From assembly GCF_053078305.1 (NCBI RefSeq), contig NZ_CP166879.1: a DNA stretch of 64,000 nucleotides, one strand, 5' to 3'. The notes below the pieces were generated by a model. That model was not told where the DNA came from. It was given only the letters and a program-made list of their open reading frames with translations, and made no database searches. Below are positions 3,096-63,756 of this stretch, piece by piece. Numbering within the stretch: the stretch's first letter is position 1; every line of letters begins with the position of its first letter. Made by a program: the position numbers and the translations under genes.

Positions 3096-3743
3096 TTACC
3101 AGACGGGCATTTCGTCTTGCAGGAAGGGATTATGCAGGCGTTCATAACCAAGTGTGGATAATGGTCCGTGACCCGGAATAAATGTCACGTCATCCCCCAG
3201 TGGCAGCAATTTATCTTTGATTGAAGAAATCAGTTGATTATGATCGCCACGCGGGAAGTCACTGCGCCCTACTCCGCCTTTGAAAATAACATCGCCAGAA
3301 ATCAGCAGCTTTGCCCGATCATCAAAAAACACGACATGACCCGGCGTATGCCCAGGGCAATGTAACACCTGTAAAGTCACATTCCCTATGCTGATGGTAT
3401 CGCCTTCTTTCAGCCAACGATCTGGCGTCAGCGGCTGACACTCTTCCAGACCAAACATACGACTTTGCGCAGGCAAGCCTTGCAGCCAGAACTCATCTTC
3501 TTTTTCCGGGCCAAAAACCGGCACGCCGTAATGTTGCGCCAGTTCCGCCGCTGCGCCAACGTGGTCCAGATGACCATGCGTCAGCAGGATCTGCATCAGT
3601 GTCAGGCCGCTGGCATCAACTTCCTGTTTGATTTTTTCCGCATCGCCGCCAGGATCGACCAGTGCGGCCAGTCGGGTTTGTTCACACCAGATCAATGAAC
3701 AGTTCTGGGAGAATGCGGTGACCGGAATAATACGATAGTTCAT
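3096..3743 (-). CDS. gloC: Hydroxyacylglutathione hydrolase GloC (YcbL), metallo-beta-lactamase fold
   Basis: 215-aa ORF with THGHLDH metal-binding motif; position after aspC. Confidence 0.9.
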
Positions 3744-3769: not shown

Positions 3770-4318
3770 CTACCAGTGCCGTGCTGGCCCGGTATCAATA
3801 TGCACAAAGTTACTACGTGGGTAATATCCTACACCACCTGCGCGCATAGATAACGCGGCTTTGCGAATATTGCTTAACGCGATACCTTCAATATGGAAAT
3901 CCATCGCCTGGCCTTTAGTGTGATAGCTTTTCTTCGCTACTCCACGGCTGCGGGCGCGTAGTTCATTGTTGGTATCAATGGAACGATAACCGGAAATGAG
4001 TTGCACCGGTTTGCGGGTGCCTAATAACCCTTGCAGGCGATACAACTGGTCGAATAATCCTGGGTCGATGGACTTTATTTTGTTCGCGCGGTAATCGCGG
4101 AAAAAATGGTTAAGTTTTGCCAATTCTTCCTGAATATAGCCTCTGCCATCGAAAAACTCCGCTTTGATTGACTCTCCGGTATGAAGATTATTGAGTGTCA
4201 AAATGCGCGGGCGTGGGGTAGAGAGTGTTGCAAACGCAGGGGTCGGCAGGATGGCGGCACCGAGTGCAACGCCACCAAGCGCCAGCAATTTGCGGCGATT
4301 AGCGTCGAATTTGTCCAT
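3770..4318 (-). CDS. mepK: Peptidoglycan L,D-endopeptidase MepK (YcbK), Tat-exported
   Basis: 182 aa from MDKFDANRRKLLALGG (twin-arginine signal); the ORF-track start 3 codons upstream is rejected. Confidence 0.9.
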   Translation of the reverse strand: MDKFDANRRKLLALGGVALGAAILPTPAFATLSTPRPRILTLNNLHTGESIKAEFFDGRGYIQEELAKLNHFFRDYRANKIKSIDPGLFDQLYRLQGLLGTRKPVQLISGYRSIDTNNELRARSRGVAKKSYHTKGQAMDFHIEGIALSNIRKAALSMRAGGVGYYPRSNFVHIDTGPARHW

Positions 4319-42519: not shown

Positions 42520-44964
42520 TTACACCTTTTCAACCTGAACAAGGTTTGTATGTGACGGATTCCCCTTAGCGAGAGGAGACGGACGTTGAGTGGTCAGTAC
42601 GTTAATACAACCACCCTTATCGACACGTTTTGCATCCGGGTCATACCAGGCACCTTCACCCAGTGCGACCACACCCGGCATCATTCGTGGCGTCACTTTC
42701 GCCTCAATATGAACCTCACCACGATCGTTAAAGATCCTGACTTTATCGCCGTTGTGGATACCGCGTTTTTGGGCATCAAGCGGGTTGATCCACATTTCCT
42801 GACGGCAAGCCGCTTTCAGCACATCAACGTTGCCGTAAGTTGAGTGAACGCGAGATTTATAGTGGAAACCCGTAAGCTGCAGCGGATACTGTTTGTTCAG
42901 CGGATCCTGATAACTTTCAAAGCCCGGCGTGTAGATCGGCAGTGGATCGATCACATCGCCTTCTGGCAATTCCCAGGTAGCGGCAATGTCAGCCAGCGCC
43001 TGCGAATAAATCTCAATTTTGCCCGATGGCGTAGTCAGTGGGTTTGCCTGCGGATCTTCACGGAAGGCTTTATAAGCAACGTGATGCCCTTGTGGGTCGC
43101 GCTTTTTAAAGATCCCCTGCTTGCGGAACTCTTCAAACGTTGGCAGTTCAGGAATCGCTTCCCGCGACTGGGCATACAGATGCCGCATCCACTCTTCCTG
43201 TGTACGACCTTCAGTAAACTGTTGCTCAACGCCAAGACGTTTTGCCAGTTCGCTGGTCATCTCATAGATGGTCTTACATTCAAAGCGCGGTTTAATCACC
43301 TGATCGTTGAAAATCACGTAAGACATATTCCCGCAGGATGCATCCAGCGCAAAGTCCATCTGTTCGGAAGCGGTGCAGTCAGGCAGCAGGATGTCAGCAT
43401 ATTTCGCCGATGAAGTCATGTGGCAGTCGATAACCACAATCAGCTCGCACTTCTTATCATCCTGGAGGATTTCATGGGTACGGTTGATTTCAGAATGCTG
43501 GTTAATCAGGCAGTTACCGGCATAGTTCCAGATCATTTTGATCGGCACATCCAGCTTATCTTTCCCGCGCACACCATCACGCAGCGCCGTCATTTCCGGG
43601 CCACGTTCAATGGCATCGGTCCACATAAACATCGAAATGCTGGTCTGGATCGGGTTTTCCAAGGTCGGCATACGGACAAACGGTAAGCTGTATGAACCTT
43701 CACGCGCGCCGCTGTTCCCTCCATTAATACCAACGTTACCGGTCAGAATCGCCAGCATCGAGATAGCGCGAGTCGCGATTTCGCCGTTGGCGTGGCGCTG
43801 CGGCCCCCATCCCTGGCTGATAAACGCCGGTTTGGTACTGCCGATTTCACGAGCCAGTTTGATGATTTTGTCTGCCGGAACACCGGTGATTTGCGAGGCC
43901 CATTCCGGTGTTTTAGCCACGCCATCTGGCCCTTCACCCAGAATATAAGCTTTATAGTGGCCATTTTTCGGCGCACTGGCTGGCAGGGTTTTCTCGTCAT
44001 AGCCAACGCAATATTTATCGAGGAATGCCTGATCCACCAGGTTTTCGGTGATCATGACATACGCCAGACCGTTAACCAGTGCGGCATCTGTTCCTGGACG
44101 AATAGGGATCCACTCATCTTCGCGCCCGGCACCGGTGTCGGTATAGCGCGGATCGATGATGATCATGCGGGCATTAGATTTCTGGCGTGCCTGTTCAAGA
44201 TAGTAAGTCACCCCACCGCCACTCATTCGCGTTTCGCCAGGGTTATTACCAAACAGCACTACCAGCTTACTGTTTTCGATATCCGACGGGCTGTTGCCAT
44301 CTGCCCAGCCGCCGTAGGTATAGTTCAGACCTTCCGCAATTTGCGCGGAAGAGTAGTCACCGTAATGGTTCAGATAACCGCCGCAGCAGTTCATCAGCCG
44401 CGCGACCAGGGTATTTCCCGGCGGCCAGGAGCGGGTCATGGTGCCACCCAGCGTACCGGTGCCATAGTTAAGATAGATGGATTCGTTGCCGTACTCTTTG
44501 ATCAGGCGCTGCATATTGGTCGCGATGATGTCGTAGGCTTCTTCCCAGCTAATGCGCTCGAATTTGCCTTCACCGCGCGCCCCGACTCGTTTCATCGGAT
44601 ATTTCAGGCGGTCCGGATTATAGACACGGCGACGCATGGAACGCCCACGCAAACAGGCGCGAACCTGGTGCAGGCCGTCGTAATTGTCATCGCCGGTATT
44701 GTCCGTTTCGACATATTTGATTTCACCGTCCACGACGTGCATACGTAGCGGGCAGCGACTACCACAGTTAACTGTACAGGCGCTCCAGATAACCTTTTCG
44801 TCTGATTTTGTTGGAATGGCGCTATCGACAGCGTGCGCAATCCGACTAAAAGGTAATGTTAATGCGCTGCTGGCCATTGCCAGGCCGCCGATCGCTGTCG
44901 TTTTTACCAAACCACGGCGACTCACCTCAGCAGCCAATACCGCATCAGGGATTTTCGTTTTCAT
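42520..44964 (-). CDS. dmsA: DMSO reductase catalytic subunit (molybdopterin, Tat-exported)
   Basis: 814-aa ORF; twin-arginine signal (EVSRRGLVKT); molybdopterin oxidoreductase family. Confidence 0.97.
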   Translation of the reverse strand: MKTKIPDAVLAAEVSRRGLVKTTAIGGLAMASSALTLPFSRIAHAVDSAIPTKSDEKVIWSACTVNCGSRCPLRMHVVDGEIKYVETDNTGDDNYDGLHQVRACLRGRSMRRRVYNPDRLKYPMKRVGARGEGKFERISWEEAYDIIATNMQRLIKEYGNESIYLNYGTGTLGGTMTRSWPPGNTLVARLMNCCGGYLNHYGDYSSAQIAEGLNYTYGGWADGNSPSDIENSKLVVLFGNNPGETRMSGGGVTYYLEQARQKSNARMIIIDPRYTDTGAGREDEWIPIRPGTDAALVNGLAYVMITENLVDQAFLDKYCVGYDEKTLPASAPKNGHYKAYILGEGPDGVAKTPEWASQITGVPADKIIKLAREIGSTKPAFISQGWGPQRHANGEIATRAISMLAILTGNVGINGGNSGAREGSYSLPFVRMPTLENPIQTSISMFMWTDAIERGPEMTALRDGVRGKDKLDVPIKMIWNYAGNCLINQHSEINRTHEILQDDKKCELIVVIDCHMTSSAKYADILLPDCTASEQMDFALDASCGNMSYVIFNDQVIKPRFECKTIYEMTSELAKRLGVEQQFTEGRTQEEWMRHLYAQSREAIPELPTFEEFRKQGIFKKRDPQGHHVAYKAFREDPQANPLTTPSGKIEIYSQALADIAATWELPEGDVIDPLPIYTPGFESYQDPLNKQYPLQLTGFHYKSRVHSTYGNVDVLKAACRQEMWINPLDAQKRGIHNGDKVRIFNDRGEVHIEAKVTPRMMPGVVALGEGAWYDPDAKRVDKGGCINVLTTQRPSPLAKGNPSHTNLVQVEKV

Positions 44965-45134
44965 AATGGCTCACTCAAGCTTGCTCACGATTGATTCCAG
45001 TAACAAACCGTATTGTGTAATTATTTCTATAGCAGATCGCTATATAGGCTTGTATACATCGAATAATTTGAAAATCAAAGAGATAGGTAGATTTTCACTC
45101 GAAAGTAGTATTACGTGTAAGTGAGGAGTAATTA

Positions 45135-45148
45135 TTGTTCGGTATCAA
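45135..45148 (-). promoter_or_regulatory. FNR binding site of the dmsA promoter (TTGAT-accg-AACAA on the dmsA strand)
   Basis: Consensus FNR dyad ~175 bp upstream of the dmsA start codon; dmsABC is a classic FNR-activated operon. Confidence 0.7.
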
Positions 45149-45191
45149 AGGGAGACAAAAAAAGCGCCCGCAGGAGGTTTAACGCTACTTA

Positions 45192-45263: not shown

Positions 45264-46256
45264 CTAATCGATGGACAGTTTATGGACACTTTCAGCCAGC
45301 GGATTAAAGCTGATTGCATCCTGTAAAAAGTCCGGCGAAAAATGCGCATACGTCATCGTTTGTTGAATCGTGGCATGGCCCAGGATTCGTTGTAGCGTAA
45401 CGATATTTCCGCCATTCATCATGAAATGTGTAGCGAATGTATGACGCATGACATGGGTGGCCTGCCCTTTCGGTAAGTCCGGCTTCACCTCCTGAAGGAT
45501 CTCCCGAAATCTGAGGTAATCAGCCTGGTACAACAATCCGGTTCTGCGGGTTTTAATTAACGCAAGTACCGCATCAGAAACGGGAACGGCGCGAGATTTT
45601 CCGTTCTTGGTGTTAAAGAACATCACGCGGTTACCTACAATATGTTCCCCACGTAAACCAGCTGCTTCACCCCACCTTGCCCCCGTGGAAAGACACAGAA
45701 TGGCAACACGCCGCGCATCTCCATCGAGTCGTTCAAGCAGTCGTTCAATCTCCTCATCTGAAAGAAAGGCCATCTCTGTGTTCCTGACTTTCAGCTTACG
45801 TATTCCCCGAACCGGGTTTTCGTTATGGAACACCTCACCCTCAATCAGCGAGCTGAACATTGCAGACAAGGCACACAAATCGCGGTTAATGCTGGAAGGC
45901 ATTAACCCGGCCTGTAATTTGTCGGACCGGTACCCGAGCATAAATTTTCGCGTCATCTGACTGGCACGAGGATCACCCATCTCACGGTTTATCTTTTCCA
46001 GTCTGACCCTGTAGGTATCCCCGTAATCCTGGTTACGACCATCAAGCAACCACCAGGCCTCTATCAGTTCGGATAACCGACGCTGATCTGCTGGCTTAGC
46101 CTGCCATGGCTTATCATGAAAATTCTGCAAAACATACCTTTCAAACTCCTGCGCCTTTGACTTCAGGGTAAAAATCTTACGAATCCGCTTTCCTTCCGTC
46201 CCTTGTGGCCTTACATCAACCTTATAACGTCCGTCTTTGAGTTGCTTAATCGACAT
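45264..46256 (-). CDS. int: P2-type tyrosine integrase
   Basis: 330 aa from MSIKQLKDGRYKVDVRP; strong similarity to remembered P2 Int (LSTGARWGEAA, HxxRHTFATHF, ILGHATIQQTMTYAHF); ATG with GGAGGGG Shine-Dalgarno. Confidence 0.9.
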   Translation of the reverse strand: MSIKQLKDGRYKVDVRPQGTEGKRIRKIFTLKSKAQEFERYVLQNFHDKPWQAKPADQRRLSELIEAWWLLDGRNQDYGDTYRVRLEKINREMGDPRASQMTRKFMLGYRSDKLQAGLMPSSINRDLCALSAMFSSLIEGEVFHNENPVRGIRKLKVRNTEMAFLSDEEIERLLERLDGDARRVAILCLSTGARWGEAAGLRGEHIVGNRVMFFNTKNGKSRAVPVSDAVLALIKTRRTGLLYQADYLRFREILQEVKPDLPKGQATHVMRHTFATHFMMNGGNIVTLQRILGHATIQQTMTYAHFSPDFLQDAISFNPLAESVHKLSID

Positions 46257-46325
46257 GATTAGCCCCTCCAACGGATAAATTAACCAAACACTCCCTGCGG
46301 GATGAAACCCGCTCGATGTGTAACG

Positions 46326-46673
46326 TCAGCCAGCATTGCGGCCTGATCGGGATGATTTTTGGGTAACGTCGATTGAAGCCAGATCGCCCTCCGACTGAGA
46401 AGATCCATCAAGAGAGAGAGCCGGGGCAATTTGACCCCCAGCTTCAAACGTTTCATCAGTTGTTAACCAAAGTGCATATTTTTTAAAACGTAAATTTTTT
46501 GTGATCTTTAATAAGATCTCACTTCCGATTCCATCTTGCCTTCCCGTTTCGTAATACCTCTGCGTATTAACAGGAATCCCTGTAAGCTCAAAGAATTGCT
46601 TCCTTGTAAGCCTCTCACTTTTCCGGATCATCAAGATTTTTTCACCGATACTTATTGACAGTGTCGAATTCAT
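46326..46673 (-). CDS. P2 C-type immunity repressor (HTH)
   Basis: 115 aa from MNSTLSISIGEKILMIRKSERLTRKQ; resembles remembered P2 C (EKIVLMRKSEYLSRQQLADLTG, GQIAPAL); upstream of int on the same strand. Confidence 0.8.
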   Translation of the reverse strand: MNSTLSISIGEKILMIRKSERLTRKQFFELTGIPVNTQRYYETGRQDGIGSEILLKITKNLRFKKYALWLTTDETFEAGGQIAPALSLDGSSQSEGDLASIDVTQKSSRSGRNAG

Positions 46674-46774
46674 ACCACTAAAATCCTCGCAAAAGTGTCG
46701 TAATTTCGACATTAAACAAACCAAAACAAACCTTCATAAGGTGCAATAGGCGCACCTGTGCGAGAGGATAACAA

Positions 46775-47299
46775 ATGCGGGACTTCATTGCCGATAAAGA
46801 GTTATCTGACACCGATCACACAACTGGAGCGGCGTACATCAACGCCGATACCAGTCAACAAGAAGCAACAGATAACAACGACGAACAAAAGCCACAGCGC
46901 ACATATAAAAAAGGGGCAACCCTGCGGCTGGATGGCCCAATAGCCGGGCTTTGCTCACTTGAAAAAGGGGCCGCCTACATCGGATTAACAAAAACAGCAT
47001 TACGCGCAGCTCTCCAGCGTAACCAGATGCCAGGGCATAAAACCCGCTCAAACCCTGAAGATGAGAATTCGGATGGTGTTTGGTGGTTTAACGTCAGAGA
47101 GTGGGACAAGCTGGCCGACGAACTCCCGGAATGTGAGCCACCAGAATGGCACAACTGGAAAAGCTACTGGACATACGACCGCCAGAAAAGAAAGTTTACC
47201 CCGGCTGATAAGGAAGATTGCCAGACCGTCAATGGAAAACGGGTTTACAAAGGCAGAAAGTCAAAGCTGGAACAGAGCCAGGATGTAAACGAACGGTGA
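46775..47299 (+). CDS. Cox-like excisionase/early regulator with N- and C-terminal extensions; start uncertain
   Basis: The central segment ATLRLDGPI...AAYIGLTKTALRAAL...DGVWWFNVREWD aligns by eye with P2 Cox; first gene of the rightward early operon, divergent from C. Confidence 0.55.
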   Translation: MRDFIADKELSDTDHTTGAAYINADTSQQEATDNNDEQKPQRTYKKGATLRLDGPIAGLCSLEKGAAYIGLTKTALRAALQRNQMPGHKTRSNPEDENSDGVWWFNVREWDKLADELPECEPPEWHNWKSYWTYDRQKRKFTPADKEDCQTVNGKRVYKGRKSKLEQSQDVNER

Positions 47300-47305
47300 T
47301 GAACG

Positions 47306-47701
47306 ATGAGCGGCAAAAATAAGTCAGAAAAAAACACAACCGTCCTTAAGCAGTTAAGCCTCCTGAAAGAGGAACACAAGGACGCCACGATACTGATGCA
47401 TCTGGAAGGCTCACCGAAAATAACAATCACAACAACCTATAGCGAGTTACACAAAGAGCTTGAAGGATTAATTAACTTTTGTTCAAAGCTAAAAGCGAAT
47501 GAAAACATTGATGACCTGATACTTAAACCAGAAGCAGAGTTCGGGCACTTTTGCGAAAGTAGAGAAAATGGATGCATCGGAATAATGCTATACGCAACCC
47601 GCGGAATAATGATTAATCTGCCCGTTGAGCAGGCTGTGGATATATTCGGAGAAATGGCACTTAATAAAACCACTATTTACAAAAGAAAAATGCCGGAGTA
47701 A
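47306..47701 (+). CDS. Hypothetical phage early protein (lower-GC moron candidate)
   Basis: 131-aa ORF starting 7 nt after the cox-like stop; GC ~40% by hand count against ~55-60% in the rest of the prophage. Confidence 0.5.
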   Translation: MSGKNKSEKNTTVLKQLSLLKEEHKDATILMHLEGSPKITITTTYSELHKELEGLINFCSKLKANENIDDLILKPEAEFGHFCESRENGCIGIMLYATRGIMINLPVEQAVDIFGEMALNKTTIYKRKMPE

Positions 47702-47714
47702 CCCGGCATGGTTA

Positions 47715-47909
47715 TTAGTATGTTGGTCCCTTAGAAAAGTTCCAGGAACTCTTGCGAGGGTATTTATGAAGTACTTTTTCGCGGACATCGTTAGCCAGAT
47801 CTCTGATTTGATCGTGCTTATCATCAGAAGACGGAGGAACTTCGGGGATTTTATCCACGATTTCAATTACTGATTTAAGCATTTTTATTAATTCATCGTC
47901 GTAAGACAT
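47715..47909 (-). CDS. Hypothetical small protein, reverse-oriented inside the early operon
   Basis: 64 aa from MSYDDELIKMLKS with a perfect AGGAG Shine-Dalgarno 6 nt upstream; convergent with the 47306 gene; lower GC. Confidence 0.5.
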   Translation of the reverse strand: MSYDDELIKMLKSVIEIVDKIPEVPPSSDDKHDQIRDLANDVREKVLHKYPRKSSWNFSKGPTY

Positions 47910-48016
47910 TGTTATCTCCTTTTTCTGGTTGTGTGGAAACACCAGAATACCACGCGCCGGGCGTGGTTAAACATCCCGGCACTGATTTTCATTTAACTTA
48001 AACGGGGTTTTCCGAT

Positions 48017-48355
48017 ATGACACAGCGACGCAGCTTCCGCACTGGCGCAGAACGCCACGCAGCCCGTTTCTCAACCAGCGCATCACGCAGCAACTCGCAC
48101 TACAGCCTGCAGGAAACGCACGCCACACCTGACGGGCATCCGGTTAAACAAACCGGTAAACACACCTGGCTGATTAATGATGCCGGAATTGTCATTCACC
48201 GGGGCGCACGCAACCCGATTACCGGAAATACCTGTTACTCCCTGACTCGCGGAGATGAGCAGTTCGGGCAGGATTTCACCCTGCACGAAGCATTAAGAAC
48301 GGCAGACCGGTTAATCAGCGGTCGCAGTTTTCAGCACCCGGAACATCGCCGCTGA
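48017..48355 (+). CDS. Hypothetical phage early protein
   Basis: 112-aa ORF in the early operon; no recognisable motif. Confidence 0.45.
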   Translation: MTQRRSFRTGAERHAARFSTSASRSNSHYSLQETHATPDGHPVKQTGKHTWLINDAGIVIHRGARNPITGNTCYSLTRGDEQFGQDFTLHEALRTADRLISGRSFQHPEHRR

Positions 48356-48374
48356 TAAATAAAAGGATTCAGCC

Positions 48375-48617
48375 ATGATCGAAGCCTACAAAATACTTAT
48401 TAATAATGCGTTGCAGCGTTATCACTTCGAACTCGCAAACCGGGGGGTAACCCGGGACGAAGGACTTCGTAACTCACTGCGGGGCGCAATTATGGGACTG
48501 TATAACTGCGCACTGGGCAGCGATGACCGCGAAGCACTGGAAGAATTAAAAGTTATTGTGGCCGAACTGTTTGAAGGTGAAATCGTTGAGCCTTATTTCA
48601 CAGAGGTGGCAGCATGA
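48375..48617 (+). CDS. Hypothetical phage early protein
   Basis: 80-aa ORF with AAGGAT Shine-Dalgarno; stop overlaps the next start (ATGA). Confidence 0.5.
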   Translation: MIEAYKILINNALQRYHFELANRGVTRDEGLRNSLRGAIMGLYNCALGSDDREALEELKVIVAELFEGEIVEPYFTEVAA

Positions 48618-48739
48618 GCGTATTTCTTTCATGGGTGATTCTGATTATTTCCGTGCTTATGGCGATTGGCATTATGCGAATTATCGAAGCGCTGAAAAAT
48701 ATCGAATCTTTATTTACTGGCGAAGAACGCCGTAAATAA
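48614..48739 (+). CDS. Small hydrophobic (single-TM) peptide, translationally coupled
   Basis: 41 codons MSVFLSWVILIISVLMAIGIMRIIEALKNIESLFTGEERRK; absent from the ORF track (<60 aa); ATGA overlap with the upstream gene. Confidence 0.4.
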   Translation: MSVFLSWVILIISVLMAIGIMRIIEALKNIESLFTGEERRK

Positions 48740-48818
48740 ATAACCAACCGGACAGAAAACATTAAAACCATCCGCATCTGCGGAGGGCTTCACTCAATCC
48801 AGAAACGGAGAAACAGCT

Positions 48819-49097
48819 ATGAGCACCAATACACCTACAGAAATAAACAAACTATTTACCGACCCGGCGCATATTGAATTGACGCAAAAAACGCTGACTG
48901 AAATAACCAATGTACTGGATGAAAGAATATCAGAAATAGATAAAGACAAGCATTTTGCTACTTACATGGCCCTGCAAATGCAAAGCATGGCAATGGTGAC
49001 AGCAAAACAGACCATCAGTGAACTCTATATGAAAAACCTGCGCCTTGAGCACGAACTGGCAGAACTCCGGGCACAGTCCGGCCAGTTTTCAGCGTGA
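48819..49097 (+). CDS. Hypothetical phage early protein
   Basis: 92-aa ORF with ACGGAG Shine-Dalgarno; helical C-terminus. Confidence 0.5.
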   Translation: MSTNTPTEINKLFTDPAHIELTQKTLTEITNVLDERISEIDKDKHFATYMALQMQSMAMVTAKQTISELYMKNLRLEHELAELRAQSGQFSA

Positions 49098-49108
49098 GGG
49101 GCAGGACG

Positions 49109-49360
49109 ATGAACAGCATATTTACCGCCACAAGACGAACCCTGCTGACGCATTTCACCGATGCCGCGGGCCGCGAATTCATGGTGGAAAGTTATTTAAT
49201 CACAACGACCACGCCGTGCCCGTCAGACGCTGATTATCTCTACATCCATCTGGCTGACGGAACACAAATCACCGCGATTGCCAGTACCGTTCGCGAAGTA
49301 ATGACCATCAGAGGGGCATGGAAATCAGAAACACAAGCCCACGGAGAGCTGCGGCCATGA
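49109..49360 (+). CDS. Hypothetical phage early protein
   Basis: 83 aa from MNSIFTATRR with GAGGGG Shine-Dalgarno; stop overlaps the next start. Confidence 0.5.
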   Translation: MNSIFTATRRTLLTHFTDAAGREFMVESYLITTTTPCPSDADYLYIHLADGTQITAIASTVREVMTIRGAWKSETQAHGELRP

Positions 49361-49569
49361 TCAGCAAGTACACCACCAACGCACGTAAACCCGGTAAAGA
49401 CGCACGCCACCACATCGCCGTACTCCGCAATCTGTTACTGGAGGAAATCGACGACTTCACGGCGACGCTGAGCGGTCCGGGCGCACCAGTAACACCAGGT
49501 GAGATCCACCGGGACCTTAAACGCCGTATTGAAAACGCCATTGATTACACCCTGAACCCGACCGAATAA
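49357..49569 (+). CDS. Hypothetical phage early protein
   Basis: 70 aa from MISKYTTNARKPGK; ATGA coupling to the upstream gene. Confidence 0.45.
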   Translation: MISKYTTNARKPGKDARHHIAVLRNLLLEEIDDFTATLSGPGAPVTPGEIHRDLKRRIENAIDYTLNPTE

Positions 49570-49595
49570 CCGGAACAGTAACGGAGGTTATCGCG

Positions 49596-50150
49596 ATGAG
49601 ACTTACACCAATGGGAATACCGGGCAAAGCCCCGGCACATGTGAAGGCGTGGACACAGCAGGAAGATCGGTTACTCATCTCGCTTTATCAGGAACACAAC
49701 ACACATCAGATGGCTGAACGAATTCAGCGAACCCGTAAAGCAGTTATGCACCGGATTCGTTTTTTACGTAATCGTGGGCTGATTGGCCGCAAGAGAAAAG
49801 CACCACTGAGTACAGAAGCCATAGCCTTTCTTATTAAAAACCGTCATGTAAAAACCGCACAGGAAATGGCTCTGGAAGTGGGATGTAGTGAGTGCACAGT
49901 GAGGTACACACTGCGTAAACGGGGTTACAACCTGAAAAAATGCGGTGAGAACCACCATTGCGCCAGATACAGCGATCATCTGGTTGAGCTGGTCACGGAG
50001 CTACGCGACATACACAACATGACGTTCTGCATGATCGCTGAACACATCAACAGCACGATACAGATGCACATTAACGACGATGCGGCGTTTCATCTCTACC
50101 ACCGCCGCACAGCGGCTGACGCCGCGCTCTGTGAACTGTTACCGGGCTGA
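49596..50150 (+). CDS. Putative DNA-binding early protein with two HTH-like segments
   Basis: 184-aa ORF with GGAGG Shine-Dalgarno; two helix-turn-helix-like stretches judged by eye; no family assigned. Confidence 0.5.
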   Translation: MRLTPMGIPGKAPAHVKAWTQQEDRLLISLYQEHNTHQMAERIQRTRKAVMHRIRFLRNRGLIGRKRKAPLSTEAIAFLIKNRHVKTAQEMALEVGCSECTVRYTLRKRGYNLKKCGENHHCARYSDHLVELVTELRDIHNMTFCMIAEHINSTIQMHINDDAAFHLYHRRTAADAALCELLPG

Positions 50151-50269
50151 GTGATCATCATGCACACACAAAAAAACCGCTTGCCATGCCGCAATCAGTC
50201 AGGTTACATTCCCACTGCACCTCATAAAACGGGTGCCGGGATTACCACCCCGCCGACTACACAAGCGCA

Positions 50270-50291
50270 CAACCGCGCCAGCGGTTTTTTT
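50270..50291 (+). terminator. Intrinsic terminator inside the prophage early region
   Basis: AACCGC-gcca-GCGGTT hairpin followed by TTTTTTT. Confidence 0.5.
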
Positions 50292-50470
50292 GTGCGTACT
50301 GTATCGCCACGTCTTTTTCGCGTCAGAATTATGGCGGGGCGTACGGGGCCGACTTCGGTCGGGCCGGGGTCTTGTGTAGCCGGTTGTGGTAACCCTGTAC
50401 GTCTCGCCACCCTGAGATTACCGCCTCGGGTTGGTGAGTTTTCACAACTTACTACACAAGGGGCCACACC

Positions 50471-50698
50471 ATGGCAAACCGCAAACAACAGCGCGTCCGC
50501 GCTGAGCGTCTTCACATCCGCACCGAAATCAACCGCAGACTCTGGCGCGCATCACGCGTCGCGCAAATCATGTACATCAACATGCTGCATGAACACGCAC
50601 ACGCGCTGTCAGACCGTTACTGTGCCGCCGTCTTCAGCTACCTGGCGGATGACCTGGCAGAGCTGCAGGACCTTATCAACCAGCAACACCACCACTAA
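50471..50698 (+). CDS. Hypothetical phage protein
   Basis: 75-aa ORF with AAGGGG Shine-Dalgarno; basic N-terminus, His-rich C-terminus. Confidence 0.45.
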   Translation: MANRKQQRVRAERLHIRTEINRRLWRASRVAQIMYINMLHEHAHALSDRYCAAVFSYLADDLAELQDLINQQHHH

Positions 50699-50766
50699 AC
50701 AACATCCTGAAGCCATCCCGCACCCGTGCGCGGGAGGCTTCCGCACGTCTGTTACCGGAGGTTCTC

Positions 50767-51189
50767 ATGAAGAACGTTAAGGGACTTTCAGATATTCAGG
50801 ATTTTTTTAACTGGATGTGGGCAGTGGATCCCCGGCTGGCTTCCCGCCTGAACGACTGGCACGACTATTACCGCCGCGCCTGTAAACAGGCCGCCAGACG
50901 CGTCACCACATACGGGGATTTCTCCTTCACCGTTGACGGCAGTTACCGCGTGGACGTGAAAGGCGATGGTGATGGTTTTGGTTTTGGTTTATTTCACATC
51001 AACGGAACCGACAGCACCGCCATCAGCTGGTCGTCGTCAGAGATGACGCTTGTTCTGGAAATGACAAACCACAGCGTGGCCGTGAAAGGTATATACACCG
51101 CAGAAGACTTTATCGGTGAATACCAGCGCCTTCTCGTGCTGTACCGGGCAGCGTTTCAGGCGGCAACTGCCGGGGAGTGCGACGCATGA
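50767..51189 (+). CDS. Hypothetical phage protein
   Basis: 140-aa ORF with GGAGG Shine-Dalgarno; stop overlaps the gpA start (ATGA). Confidence 0.5.
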   Translation: MKNVKGLSDIQDFFNWMWAVDPRLASRLNDWHDYYRRACKQAARRVTTYGDFSFTVDGSYRVDVKGDGDGFGFGLFHINGTDSTAISWSSSEMTLVLEMTNHSVAVKGIYTAEDFIGEYQRLLVLYRAAFQAATAGECDA

Positions 51190-53705
51190 GCGACCATAAC
51201 GCACAACTGGCGTACCCGTGGAACGCCCCGCTGCCGGTTATCGATCCTGAAACGTTCGGCAGAGCGCAACCAACCGCATTACGCCAGGCCATTCAGAGCT
51301 ACATCAACGAAGACATTCGCACTGACGCCAGACTGGATGAAGAAACCGTCGCCTTCCTGACAACCACAGACGAAGGGAAGCGAATTAATTCGCATCTTCA
51401 CCACGACGAAGAGCGTCGGATCAGACTGGAAAAACTGACGCGACACAAACGCGAAAATCCACCCACGCTGGTATCTGAAGCCATGGCAGAGCTGCGCGCC
51501 CTGCCGCCGTTTCTTGCCGGTCCGCTCATCCGTGACCTGGCCCGCCTGAGCCGCAAACAGGAGAGCGCACGCCGGGAAGGGCTTAAGAATAACAGCGCAT
51601 ATGCGGCGGATAACTTCGTTCGTCACGGCCTGCGTGCCCGCCTGAAACGTATCGCCCGTGTGAATGAACGCTTTGCCACCCCGGCCTTTAAGGCCACCGC
51701 CGCCCGCGAACGGCTGGATGAACTGCTTATGCTGCCGCAGCTGAGCCGTGACGAAATCCAGCGCCTTGCCACCCTGACCGCCACCGCGTTTTCCGCCGCA
51801 CTGGAGCGCGCATGTGATGAGGTCATCGAAAAGACCGGCAGGGGTGACGATGACCTGTTCACCTGGTTACTGACCTACCAGCCACTGGCACGCATGGCGT
51901 TAAAACTGGGTATCACACCACCCTGCTGGCCGTCGCTGGAAATCAGACCCGACCGCCGCACCGCCCCCGACCCGGAACAGGTGCCGGGTGCGGTCATGCG
52001 CCTTTCCTGTGCGACATGGTGGAACAGTCAGTTAAGACACCTCCGGGACATCTGGCGTGAAGAGCTGTTACGCGCCGCAGGTCTGGTGTCACGTAAGACA
52101 TCGGTATATATCAGCCATGAAGCGTTACTGGACTGGCGCGAAAAACGCCAGCGCACCCGCGATTTTCTGAAGGCCTGGGACATCGAGAACGAAGAGGGAG
52201 AACGGTTCAGCCTTGAGGATATCTACTGGGCAGGTCTCTCTAATCCGCGTAACCGCCGTAACGAGATGATGGCCTGCGTCCGGGGAATGGAGCAGGTCGC
52301 CGAAGCACGCGGCGACCTGGCGTTTTTCGTCACCGTCACAGCCCCTTCCCGTTTTCACAGCGTGAACGATGACGGCAGCCTGAACCCGAAATACTGCGGA
52401 GCAACGGTACGTGATGCCAGTGATTATCTGGTTTACCGCTTTTTCGCCGCCGTCCGCAGGGCCATCAACAAGGCCGGGCTGGGCTGGTACGGCGTGCGCA
52501 CAGTGGAGCCCCACCACGACGGTACACCGCACTGGCACATGCTGGTATTCACCAGCCCGGAAAACGAAGCCCGTATCACTGAAATCATGCGCAACGCCGC
52601 CATCAGGGAGGACCGCGCAGAGCTGGGTGATGATATCTCCCCGCGTTTTAAATGCGAAAAAATCGACCCGGCAAAAGGCACACCGGCGAGCTATATCGCG
52701 ACCTATATCGGTAAGAACCTGGACGCCAGCGCCTTCATGGGGAATGACCCGAAAACCGGCAAACCTTACGTCGATAAGGAATCAGGCAAAACCATGGCCG
52801 AAACCGTGGAGAACGCCATCGGCTGGGCGGCCCTTCACCGCATCCGCCAGTTCCAGTTCTTCGGTATCCCTCCCCGCCAGGTATGGCGCGAACTCCGCCG
52901 CCTTGCCGGGCAGATGGCCCGTAACCCGGCTGCCCCGCAGCGTCTGGACCATGACGACATTGACGCCATACTGGCCGCCGCCGACGTGGGATGTTTTGCC
53001 ACCTATATCACCCGCCAGGGTGGTGTGCTCATTCCCCGCAACACGTACCTGGTCCGCACCGCATACGAAACTGCCGAAGAGGCCAACGACTACGGCGAAT
53101 TCCCGCAACGCATTTACGGCGTCCGCGCCCCGTCACTCGGGGAGCGCTACACCATATGCACCCACCCGGACACCTGGAAACTGGTCAGACGTAAGCCGGA
53201 AAACGAAGACCGCACGGACGAGGGTTTTGACGTTGAGTGCGGCTTTGCCGCACCTTGGACTCGTGGCAATAACTGTCCCCCTGACCAGAATCTGACCATA
53301 AACGACCCGCCAGAAAGGCAGCCGGACGGACGCAGGGAGCAGCGACTTACCCTGCCGGAAGGTGATTTGGGTGAATGGTTAAGGTCACTGACCCCCACAG
53401 AGCGAAAACAACTCACCAGGCAGCTGAAAAACCCGCCACCTGACACGGAAACCGTGAAAAACGGCGGCATCAGTGCGCCCGCTGGCGGCGTTCGCGTGAG
53501 TGTCGCACTGACCGCTGAGCCACACATCACCGCACAAATCACCCGTGAGCTTGATGCGCTGGGCGTGCAGCTGCATGAAAGCGCCGTCGTTTCCGTCCGG
53601 CACGGTGCCCGCGTGCGCCTGGCTGACGGGCGCACCGCGTACTGGAATGACAGCACCCGCCGCATTGATATCACCCCCGCACCGAATACGGAGGCGCCAC
53701 AATGA
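51186..53705 (+). CDS. Rolling-circle replication initiator endonuclease (P2 gpA-like)
   Basis: 839 aa from MSDHNAQLAYPW (ATG with GGGGAG Shine-Dalgarno; the ORF track uses a GTG 9 nt upstream); HUH motif GTPHWHMLVF; size and position as in P2/186. Confidence 0.85.
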   Translation: MSDHNAQLAYPWNAPLPVIDPETFGRAQPTALRQAIQSYINEDIRTDARLDEETVAFLTTTDEGKRINSHLHHDEERRIRLEKLTRHKRENPPTLVSEAMAELRALPPFLAGPLIRDLARLSRKQESARREGLKNNSAYAADNFVRHGLRARLKRIARVNERFATPAFKATAARERLDELLMLPQLSRDEIQRLATLTATAFSAALERACDEVIEKTGRGDDDLFTWLLTYQPLARMALKLGITPPCWPSLEIRPDRRTAPDPEQVPGAVMRLSCATWWNSQLRHLRDIWREELLRAAGLVSRKTSVYISHEALLDWREKRQRTRDFLKAWDIENEEGERFSLEDIYWAGLSNPRNRRNEMMACVRGMEQVAEARGDLAFFVTVTAPSRFHSVNDDGSLNPKYCGATVRDASDYLVYRFFAAVRRAINKAGLGWYGVRTVEPHHDGTPHWHMLVFTSPENEARITEIMRNAAIREDRAELGDDISPRFKCEKIDPAKGTPASYIATYIGKNLDASAFMGNDPKTGKPYVDKESGKTMAETVENAIGWAALHRIRQFQFFGIPPRQVWRELRRLAGQMARNPAAPQRLDHDDIDAILAAADVGCFATYITRQGGVLIPRNTYLVRTAYETAEEANDYGEFPQRIYGVRAPSLGERYTICTHPDTWKLVRRKPENEDRTDEGFDVECGFAAPWTRGNNCPPDQNLTINDPPERQPDGRREQRLTLPEGDLGEWLRSLTPTERKQLTRQLKNPPPDTETVKNGGISAPAGGVRVSVALTAEPHITAQITRELDALGVQLHESAVVSVRHGARVRLADGRTAYWNDSTRRIDITPAPNTEAPQ

Positions 53706-62610: not shown

Positions 62611-63756
62611 GTGAGCTGGCCGAATGTAACCGTAAGCCATCAGAACCGTTTCAACGGTGCCACCCGTGAAGTGGAGCGCACGCTGCTTTTTGTGGGCTAT
62701 GGCAAAAAGAACACAGGTAACACCCTTTCCGTCTCCCCTGAGACCGACCTGGACGACGTGCTGGGACCGGATGAAAGCCTGCTTAAATCCACGCTTACCG
62801 CCGCAATCGCCAACGGTGGCCAGAACTGGTTTGCCTATGTTCACGTTCTGTCTGAACCCAAACCCCCGGCACCGGAGGGTGGCGACGCTAACGCCGCATG
62901 GGTGGACGCGGTGAAAAAAGCGCAGACCATTGCTTCTGCCGAGGGCGTGGTGATTGCCATTGACATCACGGCCAAAGATGCCGTTAACCGCGCCACCGAA
63001 ACCCGCGCCCTGCTTCAGTCCGCTTATGGCCGCTTTGTCTGGTTCATGCTGTGCGTGGCCGGACCGGGCAAGGATGAAGCATGGGCGGCATACGTCACCC
63101 GCATCAGTGCCATACAGGACGGCGTGGCAGCACCTGGCGTGATGGTGGTTCCCCGCTTATGGGGAAATGAGCCCGGCGTACTGGCGGGCCGTCTCTGTAA
63201 TCCTTCCGTCACCGTTGCGGACAGTCCGGCACGTGTGGCAACCGGTGCCCTGGTGGCGATGGGTAACGATGAGATCCCGCAGGACGGCAAGAAACAGCCC
63301 CTTGAGCTGGCCACGCTGCGCTCGCTGGAAGGCAAACGCTTCAGCGTGCCCATGTGGTATCACGATTTCGACGGGCTCTACTGGTCAGACGGACGCACCC
63401 TTGATGTGGAGGGGGGCGATTACCAGGTCATCGAAAACGTGCGCGTGGTGGATAAGGTCTCCCGCCGTGTACGTCTGCGCGCCATTGCCCGCCTTGCGGA
63501 TCGCGCACTCAACAGCACACCGGGCAGCATTGCCGCCAGCCAGACATATTTCAGCCGCACGCTGCGTGAAATGGCGCTCGCCACGGAGATTAACGGCGTA
63601 CCGTTCCCCGGCGAGGTTAAACCGCCACAGGACGGGGATATCACCATCGTCTGGACCAGCAGTACACACGTGCAGATTTACATTGTGGTACGCCCCTACG
63701 AGAGCGCAAAAGCCATTGGCGTAAGTATTGAACTCGACACAGCACTGGAGATCTGA
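62611..63756 (+). CDS. Putative tail sheath-type structural protein (GTG start)
   Basis: 381-aa ORF with TAAGGAG Shine-Dalgarno, followed immediately by a small structural ORF; assignment by position only. Confidence 0.35.
   Translation: MSWPNVTVSHQNRFNGATREVERTLLFVGYGKKNTGNTLSVSPETDLDDVLGPDESLLKSTLTAAIANGGQNWFAYVHVLSEPKPPAPEGGDANAAWVDAVKKAQTIASAEGVVIAIDITAKDAVNRATETRALLQSAYGRFVWFMLCVAGPGKDEAWAAYVTRISAIQDGVAAPGVMVVPRLWGNEPGVLAGRLCNPSVTVADSPARVATGALVAMGNDEIPQDGKKQPLELATLRSLEGKRFSVPMWYHDFDGLYWSDGRTLDVEGGDYQVIENVRVVDKVSRRVRLRAIARLADRALNSTPGSIAASQTYFSRTLREMALATEINGVPFPGEVKPPQDGDITIVWTSSTHVQIYIVVRPYESAKAIGVSIELDTALEI

Follow-up and report, generated by a model that had tools for sequence, protein, structure and literature searches.

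Why should the early operon of a prophage be interrupted by a stretch in which no gene could be named? We addressed this question for the gap at positions 50151-50470 of a 64,000-nucleotide stretch (the window) of contig NZ_CP166879.1, RefSeq assembly GCF_053078305.1. The gap is exactly 320 bp long and runs from the stop of a 184-amino-acid (aa) open reading frame (ORF), at 50150, to the next supported ORF, which starts from the ATG at 50471. A first-pass annotation, made from the sequence without database searches, had described it as a structured non-coding region with an intrinsic terminator and a second GC-rich hairpin, possibly encoding a small RNA or another regulatory element. The analysis reported here makes it likely that the gap is an IsrK-C4 antisense-RNA immunity cassette of the P4/P1 type, placed in the early operon of a P88-like (Xuanwuvirus, P2-type) prophage.

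Rfam covariance models were scanned over 47000-53000, and the scan was repeated on the whole window. Two families were found in the gap above their gathering scores, both on the plus strand: isrK (RF01394) at 50217-50291, which matched the full model (1-77) at 63.6 bits (gathering score 50, E-value 3e-12), and C4 antisense RNA (RF01695) at 50327-50414, with 79.6 bits against 45 (E-value 5e-15) over model positions 1-87 of 87. Folding gave the same picture, as the C4 segment alone adopted the structure of the model (z = -4.28, with 0 of 200 shuffles equally stable) and the 274-nucleotide (nt) region that spans both RNAs was also unusually stable (z = -4.55). The first-pass view of a structured, regulatory gap with small-RNA genes was thus borne out. 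Both hairpins on which that view was built are real: a terminator scan recovered the canonical terminator, AACCGC-gcca-GCGGTT followed by a run of seven Ts, at 50271-50291, where it folds as predicted, and the GC-rich UUCG hairpin is present at 50349-50362. They are not, however, two independent structures, because the terminator is the 3' end of the IsrK/seqA-type RNA, while the UUCG hairpin is an inner helix of the C4/CI-type RNA.

The C4 RNA is closed by a stem of 17 bp (50332-50348 with 50393-50409), inside which lie the UUCG hairpin (50349-50362), a second hairpin (50363-50384) with a 12-nt loop, and an 8-nt single strand. These two exposed parts carry the antisense elements: a' (CUUGUGUAG, 50371-50379) in the 12-nt loop and b' (GUGGUAA, 50386-50392) in the single strand 3' of hairpin 2. 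Each of them has a partner on either side of C4, all on the plus strand. Upstream, within IsrK, b1 (UUACCAC, 50242-50248) occupies the loop of IsrK hairpin 2 and is the exact complement of b', and a1 (CUACACAAG, 50257-50265) lies in the IsrK linker as an exact 9-nt complement of a'. Downstream, a small hairpin directly 3' of C4 (50410-50430), present in the predicted fold of the 274-nt region, displays b2 (UUACCGC, 50418-50424) in its loop, pairing with b' through six Watson-Crick pairs and one G-U, and a2 (CUACACAAG, 50452-50460) is once more an exact 9-nt complement of a'. These antisense sites and their four target sites, the defining feature of the cassette, were absent from the first-pass annotation. 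The order b1-a1-[a'-b']-b2-a2 on the RNA is collinear with antiparallel pairing on either side, and therefore all 320 bp are accounted for; conserved elements cover every part of the gap.

Pairing was counted on an alignment of 31 distinct P88-like modules over the 260-nt module. The internal helices were 99.8% paired, against 36-48% with the partners slid; in C4, 27/27 pairs were 100% paired and four had changed on both sides. The long-range pairs behaved in the same way. Between a'/b' and a1/b1, 99.0% of positions were paired and 11/16 pairs had changed on both sides (seven of nine at a1 and four of seven at b1), giving a covariation score of 0.645 compared with 0.126 after shuffling, a value reached by 0/500 shuffles. 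Between a'/b' and a2/b2 the corresponding figures were 98.6% paired, 10/16 pairs changed on both sides (six of nine at a2, and four of seven at b2, where pairing with b' was 100%), and a score of 0.633 against 0.120, again with 0/500 shuffles reaching it. From locus to locus, among those compared, a' and b' vary, and the four target sites vary with them. An 8-nt match between C4 (50381-50388) and CACAACCG at the foot of the terminator (50268-50275) had also been considered for the role of b1. It was rejected because covariation singles out the hairpin-loop sequences at 50242-50248 and 50418-50424 as the b sites, the matching sequence being simply conserved.

When IMG/VR was scanned for exact matches to a pattern from the conserved 5' end of C4, 120 loci were recovered; with other loci these gave 125 parsed modules, which hold 40 a'/b' combinations and 30 different a' loops. 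Over these 125 modules the longest perfect run of an a' with its own downstream a2 had a mean of 8.45 nt; when the a' was taken from other modules, the mean fell to 4.28 nt. In the P88-like/epsilon class (48 modules), 15 combinations are formed from 13 variants of a' and 6 of b', and therefore a' and b' reassort; the combination found in the window was unseen in the other 124 modules.

Individual loci are worth recording beside these counts. At L125 (10289-10548, minus strand) the a1/b1 of IsrK is mismatched to the adjacent C4, and at L081 (7381-7640, minus strand) a' and a2 show a 1-nt mismatch with a1 still matching; both look like natural recombinants. A further locus, L040 (IMGVR_UViG_2910425090_000003), has two IsrK-C4 modules about 1 kb apart (2410-2497 and 3415-3502) that share an a' loop and differ in b'.

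What the antisense elements would control is suggested by the position of a2. This site overlaps a Shine-Dalgarno-like AAGGGG (50458-50463), 7 nt before the ATG at 50471 of a 75-aa ORF (50471-50698, plus strand), and the predicted duplex of the a' loop with its target at a2 (-16.4 kcal/mol) covers 50451-50466. The distance from the end of a2 to the ATG of the ORF is 9-11 nt in the epsilon-class modules and 8-15 nt in most lambdoid types. The 75-aa ORF, whose variation is concentrated at third codon positions, matches Pfam PF25738 ('Derepression') at 30.6 bits (gathering score 27) and shows 33% identity to the P4 epsilon (E) protein over 66 aa (E-value 1e-7), which itself scores 170 bits on this family. 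We therefore take this homologue of the P4 anti-repressor as the presumed regulated target. The E protein of P4, an anti-repressor, binds C, the repressor of P2 (PMC2995052). A repressor of this kind is encoded in the window on the minus strand (46326-46724); it belongs to the P2 C family of immunity repressors, matches the PDB 'C protein' chains 2L49/2XCJ (E-value 6.5e-18) and is 37% identical to the C protein of P88. Downstream of the cassette and in the same orientation lies replication gene A (51177-53705, plus strand; Pfam Phage_GPA, 356 bits), which may be affected by polarity from the cassette.

The IsrK/P4-seqA-type RNA consists of hairpin 1 (50217-50236), hairpin 2 (50237-50252), a single-stranded linker and the intrinsic terminator (50271-50291), found both by the scan and by folding. 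Its helices were 99.5-100% paired in the 31 homologues, that of the terminator 99.5%. The RNA adjoins a C4-type RNA directly, on its upstream side, and carries sites complementary to it; its own promoter would be formed by the hexamers TTGCCA (-35, 50181-50186) and TACATT (-10, 50205-50210), separated by an 18-nt spacer. This site (50181-50210, plus strand) scored 9/12 in a consensus scan, and the start predicted from it, ~50217, is the first base of the isrK match. Both hexamers are invariant in 48/48 epsilon-class modules, always 6 nt from the IsrK 5' end, and a site of equal geometry precedes the IsrK-type sequence in lambdoid phages and in P4, where we take it to be the PLE promoter. We infer from this conservation that 50181-50210 is a conserved internal promoter.

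Between the two RNAs lies a spacer of 35 nt (50292-50326, plus strand), probably part of the precursor and conserved in the alignment. In the minimum-free-energy fold of the unprocessed read-through RNA (50217-50490, the 274-nt region) the spacer can pair with the 5' strand of C4 in an alternative pairing, and the a1/b1 region pairs with a'/b' in cis. RNase P makes the 5' ends of P1 c4 and of the P4 CI RNA. With such processing in mind, the conserved U|G on the 5' side and the ACC that follows the stem on the 3' side place the likely ends of mature C4 at ~50333 and ~50412. By analogy with these RNAs, C4 would be excised from its precursor and would act in trans as an immunity factor.

Taken together, these observations are consistent with the following model. 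Transcription would start at ~50217 from the internal promoter at ~50181-50210. Most transcripts would end at the 50271-50291 terminator, producing a short IsrK with b1 in a hairpin loop and a1 single-stranded, while those that read through, and those arriving from the upstream early promoter, would carry C4 (50327-50414), which would then be cut out. C4 would expose a' in its 12-nt loop and b' in its single strand, allowing them to pair with a2 and b2. Since a2 overlaps the Shine-Dalgarno sequence of the epsilon-like gene, we propose that this pairing blocks translation of the 75-aa anti-repressor; expression of a 140-aa ORF and of gene A would probably be lowered too, by polarity or premature termination. 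Because IsrK carries the target-like sites b1/a1, it is proposed to serve as a decoy that would compete for C4 in cis and in trans and set the threshold of the switch. Should repression fail, the epsilon-like protein would inactivate the P2 C-type repressor, leading to induction or derepression. The hypervariable a'/b' sequences would define the immunity specificities.

Several points weigh against this model. The assignment of the epsilon-like gene is one of distant homology (30.6 against 27 bits; 33% identity), and binding of the 75-aa protein to the prophage's own repressor is suggested by analogy with P4. The promoter is a mere 9/12 consensus match with an 18-nt spacer, and its activity, the efficiency of the terminator and the processing of C4 are predictions here. 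As for the output, the one documented for P4, as summarised in PMC4825925, is premature transcription termination and not simple occlusion of a ribosome-binding site, and in the model published for Gifsy-1 a part is played by orf45, a small ORF overlapping the C4 region (PMC4825925). The molecular output in this prophage could follow either the P4 or the Gifsy-1 model.

The question of output leads to a variant that is compatible with the model above, in which termination control of the P4 kind would be the main output and occlusion secondary. C4 would then pair with a1/b1 and a2/b2 on the nascent RNA and cause a stop at the IsrK terminator and/or at Rho-dependent sites, shutting off epsilon, the 140-aa ORF and gene A together as an RNA-based second layer of immunity. 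We lean against this variant, though not strongly. In P4, transcription ends prematurely when the CI RNA pairs with seqA and seqC (as PMC4825925 summarises), the order of the module upstream of epsilon and the replication gene is the same in P4, and gene A does lie downstream in the same orientation. In this prophage, however, a2 is directly on the Shine-Dalgarno sequence of the first gene and epsilon follows C4 after 56 nt, whereas 245 nt separate CI from epsilon in P4, and the terminator scan found no terminator-like site between C4 and epsilon. The P4 interval holds nested leader ORFs and the timm terminator. Occlusion, the output in P1, is favoured because a2 lies directly on the Shine-Dalgarno sequence of the first gene. 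A bolder extension would treat the reassorting a'/b' 'barcodes' as a combinatorial code and the cassette as a second RNA-based immunity layer that gates replication gene A. We regard this as unlikely, but if true the code would determine who can silence or derepress whom among co-resident helpers, satellites and lambdoid prophages; helper-satellite cross-talk would be written in ~16 nt of RNA, and gene A would be gated as P4 immunity gates its replication gene. Another role for IsrK, mainly as a trans-acting Hfq-bound small RNA with host mRNAs as targets and with incidental C4 contacts, would fit the Rfam label of the family ('Hfq binding RNA') and the U-tailed terminator typical of such RNAs. 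It is nonetheless improbable, as the variable parts of IsrK, b1 and a1, track the linked C4 and not host sequence; no host target came to light, none having been looked for.

Other alternatives would deny that the gap is an RNA cassette at all. A plain operon boundary, with an intrinsic terminator and an unrelated stable hairpin in inert spacer DNA, would explain the terminator-like hairpin and its T run, but is scarcely tenable given that two curated RNA families match over their full length, that all 320 bp fall in conserved elements, that the long-range complementarities covary, and that the module recurs in lambdoid phages and P4 with homology starting exactly at 50217. Nor is the earlier proposal supported that the terminator splits the early region into two transcription units: the homologous terminator of Gifsy-1 is partly read through (PMC4825925), so that of the window is probably leaky and regulated. 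The suggested antitermination element found no support as such, and no LexA box was seen in the gap by eye, no tool scan having been made for one. The remaining alternative is that the gap encodes an 'Ash family protein' (Pfam PF10554) from the 209-aa frame that crosses it, and we consider this highly improbable. The first-pass annotation had seen no credible ORF here and had dismissed this frame as a GC-rich artefact. The frame is in fact open, both here and in 31/31 aligned homologues over the 260-nt module, but it is not a supported gene: it has no Pfam or NCBIfam match at curated thresholds and, where it overlaps the epsilon-like gene, its 10316 amino-acid differences exceed both the 7134 of the epsilon frame and the 9432 counted in the remaining one, for which reasons it is best read as non-coding. 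Its openness speaks for an Ash protein, as do weak PF10554 matches (18.2 bits here, 26.6 bits in an E. coli homologue), the 'ash family protein' pseudogene calls made by the PGAP annotation at the position of the gap, and an ORF from a conserved AUG inside C4 (50331) that is open for 130-149 codons in 45/48 epsilon-class modules, a mild oddity in that synonymous resampling gives P ~0.06 for the frame staying open across epsilon by chance. On the other side, the frame of the window scores below the PF10554 gathering score of 26, its substitution pattern is unlike that of a coding frame, and the best PF10554 match is the obsolete 'cI ORF' of P4 (59.7 bits), which in reality yields the CI RNA. 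The distance from IsrK to C4 varies between subfamilies (35, 24, 21 and 107 nt) by non-multiples of 3, and the ORF from the C4-internal AUG stops at codons 8-65 in many modules. A protein-coding 209-aa frame was rejected, as conservation follows base-pairing and not codons.

The ORF that starts inside C4 (50331-50780, plus strand) covers the epsilon-like gene completely, in the +1 frame, and stops just inside the 140-aa ORF; by position, its AUG appears to be the first AUG of Gifsy-1 orf45. PF10554 ('Phage_ASH') itself matches translated isrK/C4 loci, among them 50151-50468 of the window (plus strand), 8584-8171 of P4 (minus strand) and 4010-4270 of locus L002, and P4 epsilon matches PF25738 only, not PF10554. 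Translations of the RNA region likewise hit several PHROG families labelled 'transcriptional regulator', which appear to include over-extended coding-sequence calls for anti-repressors. PF10554 has been used as an 'epsilon' marker in surveys of P4-like satellites (PMC8628076). Because the E. coli P88-like homologue reaches the gathering score (26.6 against 26 bits), this marker can also hit the RNA locus of prophages that are not satellites.

The prophage that carries the IsrK-C4 cassette is of the P2 type. Its integrase gene (45264-46271, minus strand) adjoins dmsA (42520-44964, minus strand), which flanks the prophage; a Cox gene is found at 46775-47299, replication gene A is the last gene of the early operon, and portal, terminase, scaffold, capsid and small terminase genes of the P2 type are also present. 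The nearest phage records are P88-like Xuanwuvirus genomes, and in the early region DNA conservation with them extends to little beyond the gap, the small gene that follows it and part of gene A. Phage P88 was recovered after mitomycin C treatment (PMC5285337). DNA like that of the gap, at ~76-95% identity, was found in 1178/5426 complete E. coli genomes, where the annotation is lacking, or names an 'ash family protein' pseudogene or a hypothetical protein. The 140-aa ORF does not resemble P4 orf151 and falls in no family of Pfam or NCBIfam, its sole match being a PHROG of unknown function. Directly upstream of the cassette, the 184-aa gene (49596-50150, plus strand) has weak Myb/HTH-type matches and falls in PHROG 323 ('transcriptional regulator, D5-like'); in E. 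coli and Citrobacter prophages, homologues in the equivalent position are annotated 'DNA-binding protein'. Elsewhere in the window, a DUF2586 protein (432 bits) is encoded at 62611-63756 (plus strand), after the P2-type O/N/M genes, and the Rfam family STnc130 (RF02084, 122 bits) matches at 45055-45189 (plus strand). As the latter lies between dmsA and the integrase gene, it is at or beside the prophage attachment site.

These results assign two RNA genes, and a predicted target for them, to DNA that had been left unannotated or annotated wrongly. They also indicate that helper-type P2-like phages carry the immunity-plus-epsilon cassette of their satellite P4, which bears on the origin of the P4 immunity system and on the induction of P2-type prophages that have a C repressor. 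Less described are the setting, a P4-type immunity-epsilon cassette immediately upstream of gene A in a complete P2-type phage, of which a limited term search of the literature found no mention, and the extent of a'/b' reassortment. Neither overturns current understanding.

The cassette is the same module as P4 seqA-CI and Gifsy-1 isrK-STnc1160 and is related to c4 of P1/P7. With the immI region of P1/P7 (c4-icd-ant) it shares the Rfam family, which is named after P1 c4. As Citron and Schuster are said to have described in 1990, the a'/b' of P1 c4 are complementary to upstream a1/b1 and downstream a2/b2 sites; the downstream site reportedly covers the ribosome-binding site of the first ORF of the anti-repressor operon, and differences in specificity reportedly give rise to heteroimmunity. 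In the window, likewise, the downstream target overlaps the translation start of an anti-repressor gene (a2 on AAGGGG; PF25738), although the icd and ant genes downstream of P1/P7 c4 are unrelated to epsilon.

Closer relatives are found in lambdoid phages. BLASTN placed the module in phages Stx2a, Stx2c, 1720a-02, PhiR49_2 and Lys8385Vzw, between cro/roi-type genes and an anti-repressor gene, and the lambdoid DNA homology covers exactly 50217 to ~50455 of the window. In Gifsy-1, where the order is isrK-orf45(STnc1160)-anrP, IsrK is a structural homologue of P4 seqA that activates in trans the translation of the downstream anti-repressor (PMC4825925, Hershko-Shalev et al. 2016), and some transcripts read through the IsrK terminator to form the precursor of the downstream RNA (PMC4825925). 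The likeness would include a promoter of IsrK's own, a leaky terminator and a processed RNA downstream (PMC4825925), as well as control of an anti-repressor gene. In Gifsy-1 the long RNA pairs the middle of IsrK with the C4 region, as does the predicted fold in the window, and this predicted cis fold resembles the translationally inactive 'structure A' of Gifsy-1 (PMC4825925). The two differ in that the anti-repressor is of the AnrP/Rha type in Gifsy-1 and the lambdoid phages and epsilon-type here, in a P2-type phage. Moreover, b1 and a1 lie 85 and 70 nt upstream of C4 here (-85 and -70) as opposed to -76 and ~-60 in lambdoid modules, and the 45-codon upstream ORF that ends at the anti-repressor start codon in Gifsy-1 is absent, the corresponding frame running for 149 codons.

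The comparison with P4 is the most complete. Rfam finds isrK and C4 side by side in P4 and in all eight related loci. In P4, as here, seqA (isrK match 8692-8615) is followed by CI (C4 match 8507-8420), both on the minus strand, and then by epsilon/PF25738, the family of the next supported gene downstream; matched a and b sites of its own are present in P4 both upstream and downstream, as is a promoter-like site of equal geometry. The spacing differs, with 107 nt between the IsrK-type and C4-type RNAs in P4 against 35 nt here, and epsilon 245 nt after CI against 56 nt after C4; the a2-type site precedes a different ATG in P4, whereas here it is on the Shine-Dalgarno sequence of epsilon. The 140-aa ORF is unrelated to P4 orf151, and the replication gene is gpA instead of the alpha primase. 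The element in the window is a complete P2-type phage (gpA, Cox, C repressor, integrase and Q/P/O/N/M genes), not a satellite: it does not have the constitution of P4-like satellites (alpha primase, delta, sid, psu and alpA, without structural genes), and only the immunity-epsilon cassette is shared. An 'IsrK-C4 immunity system of P4' has also been described in lambdoid prophages (PMC3632133). The cassette is thus of a known kind, because the IsrK-C4 pairing and the seqA-CI equivalence in P4 have been published (PMC4825925; PMC3632133) and Rfam has a family for each of the two RNAs. It is a phage switch of a well-known type and not a new one, with an a'/b' specificity that is new to the sample.

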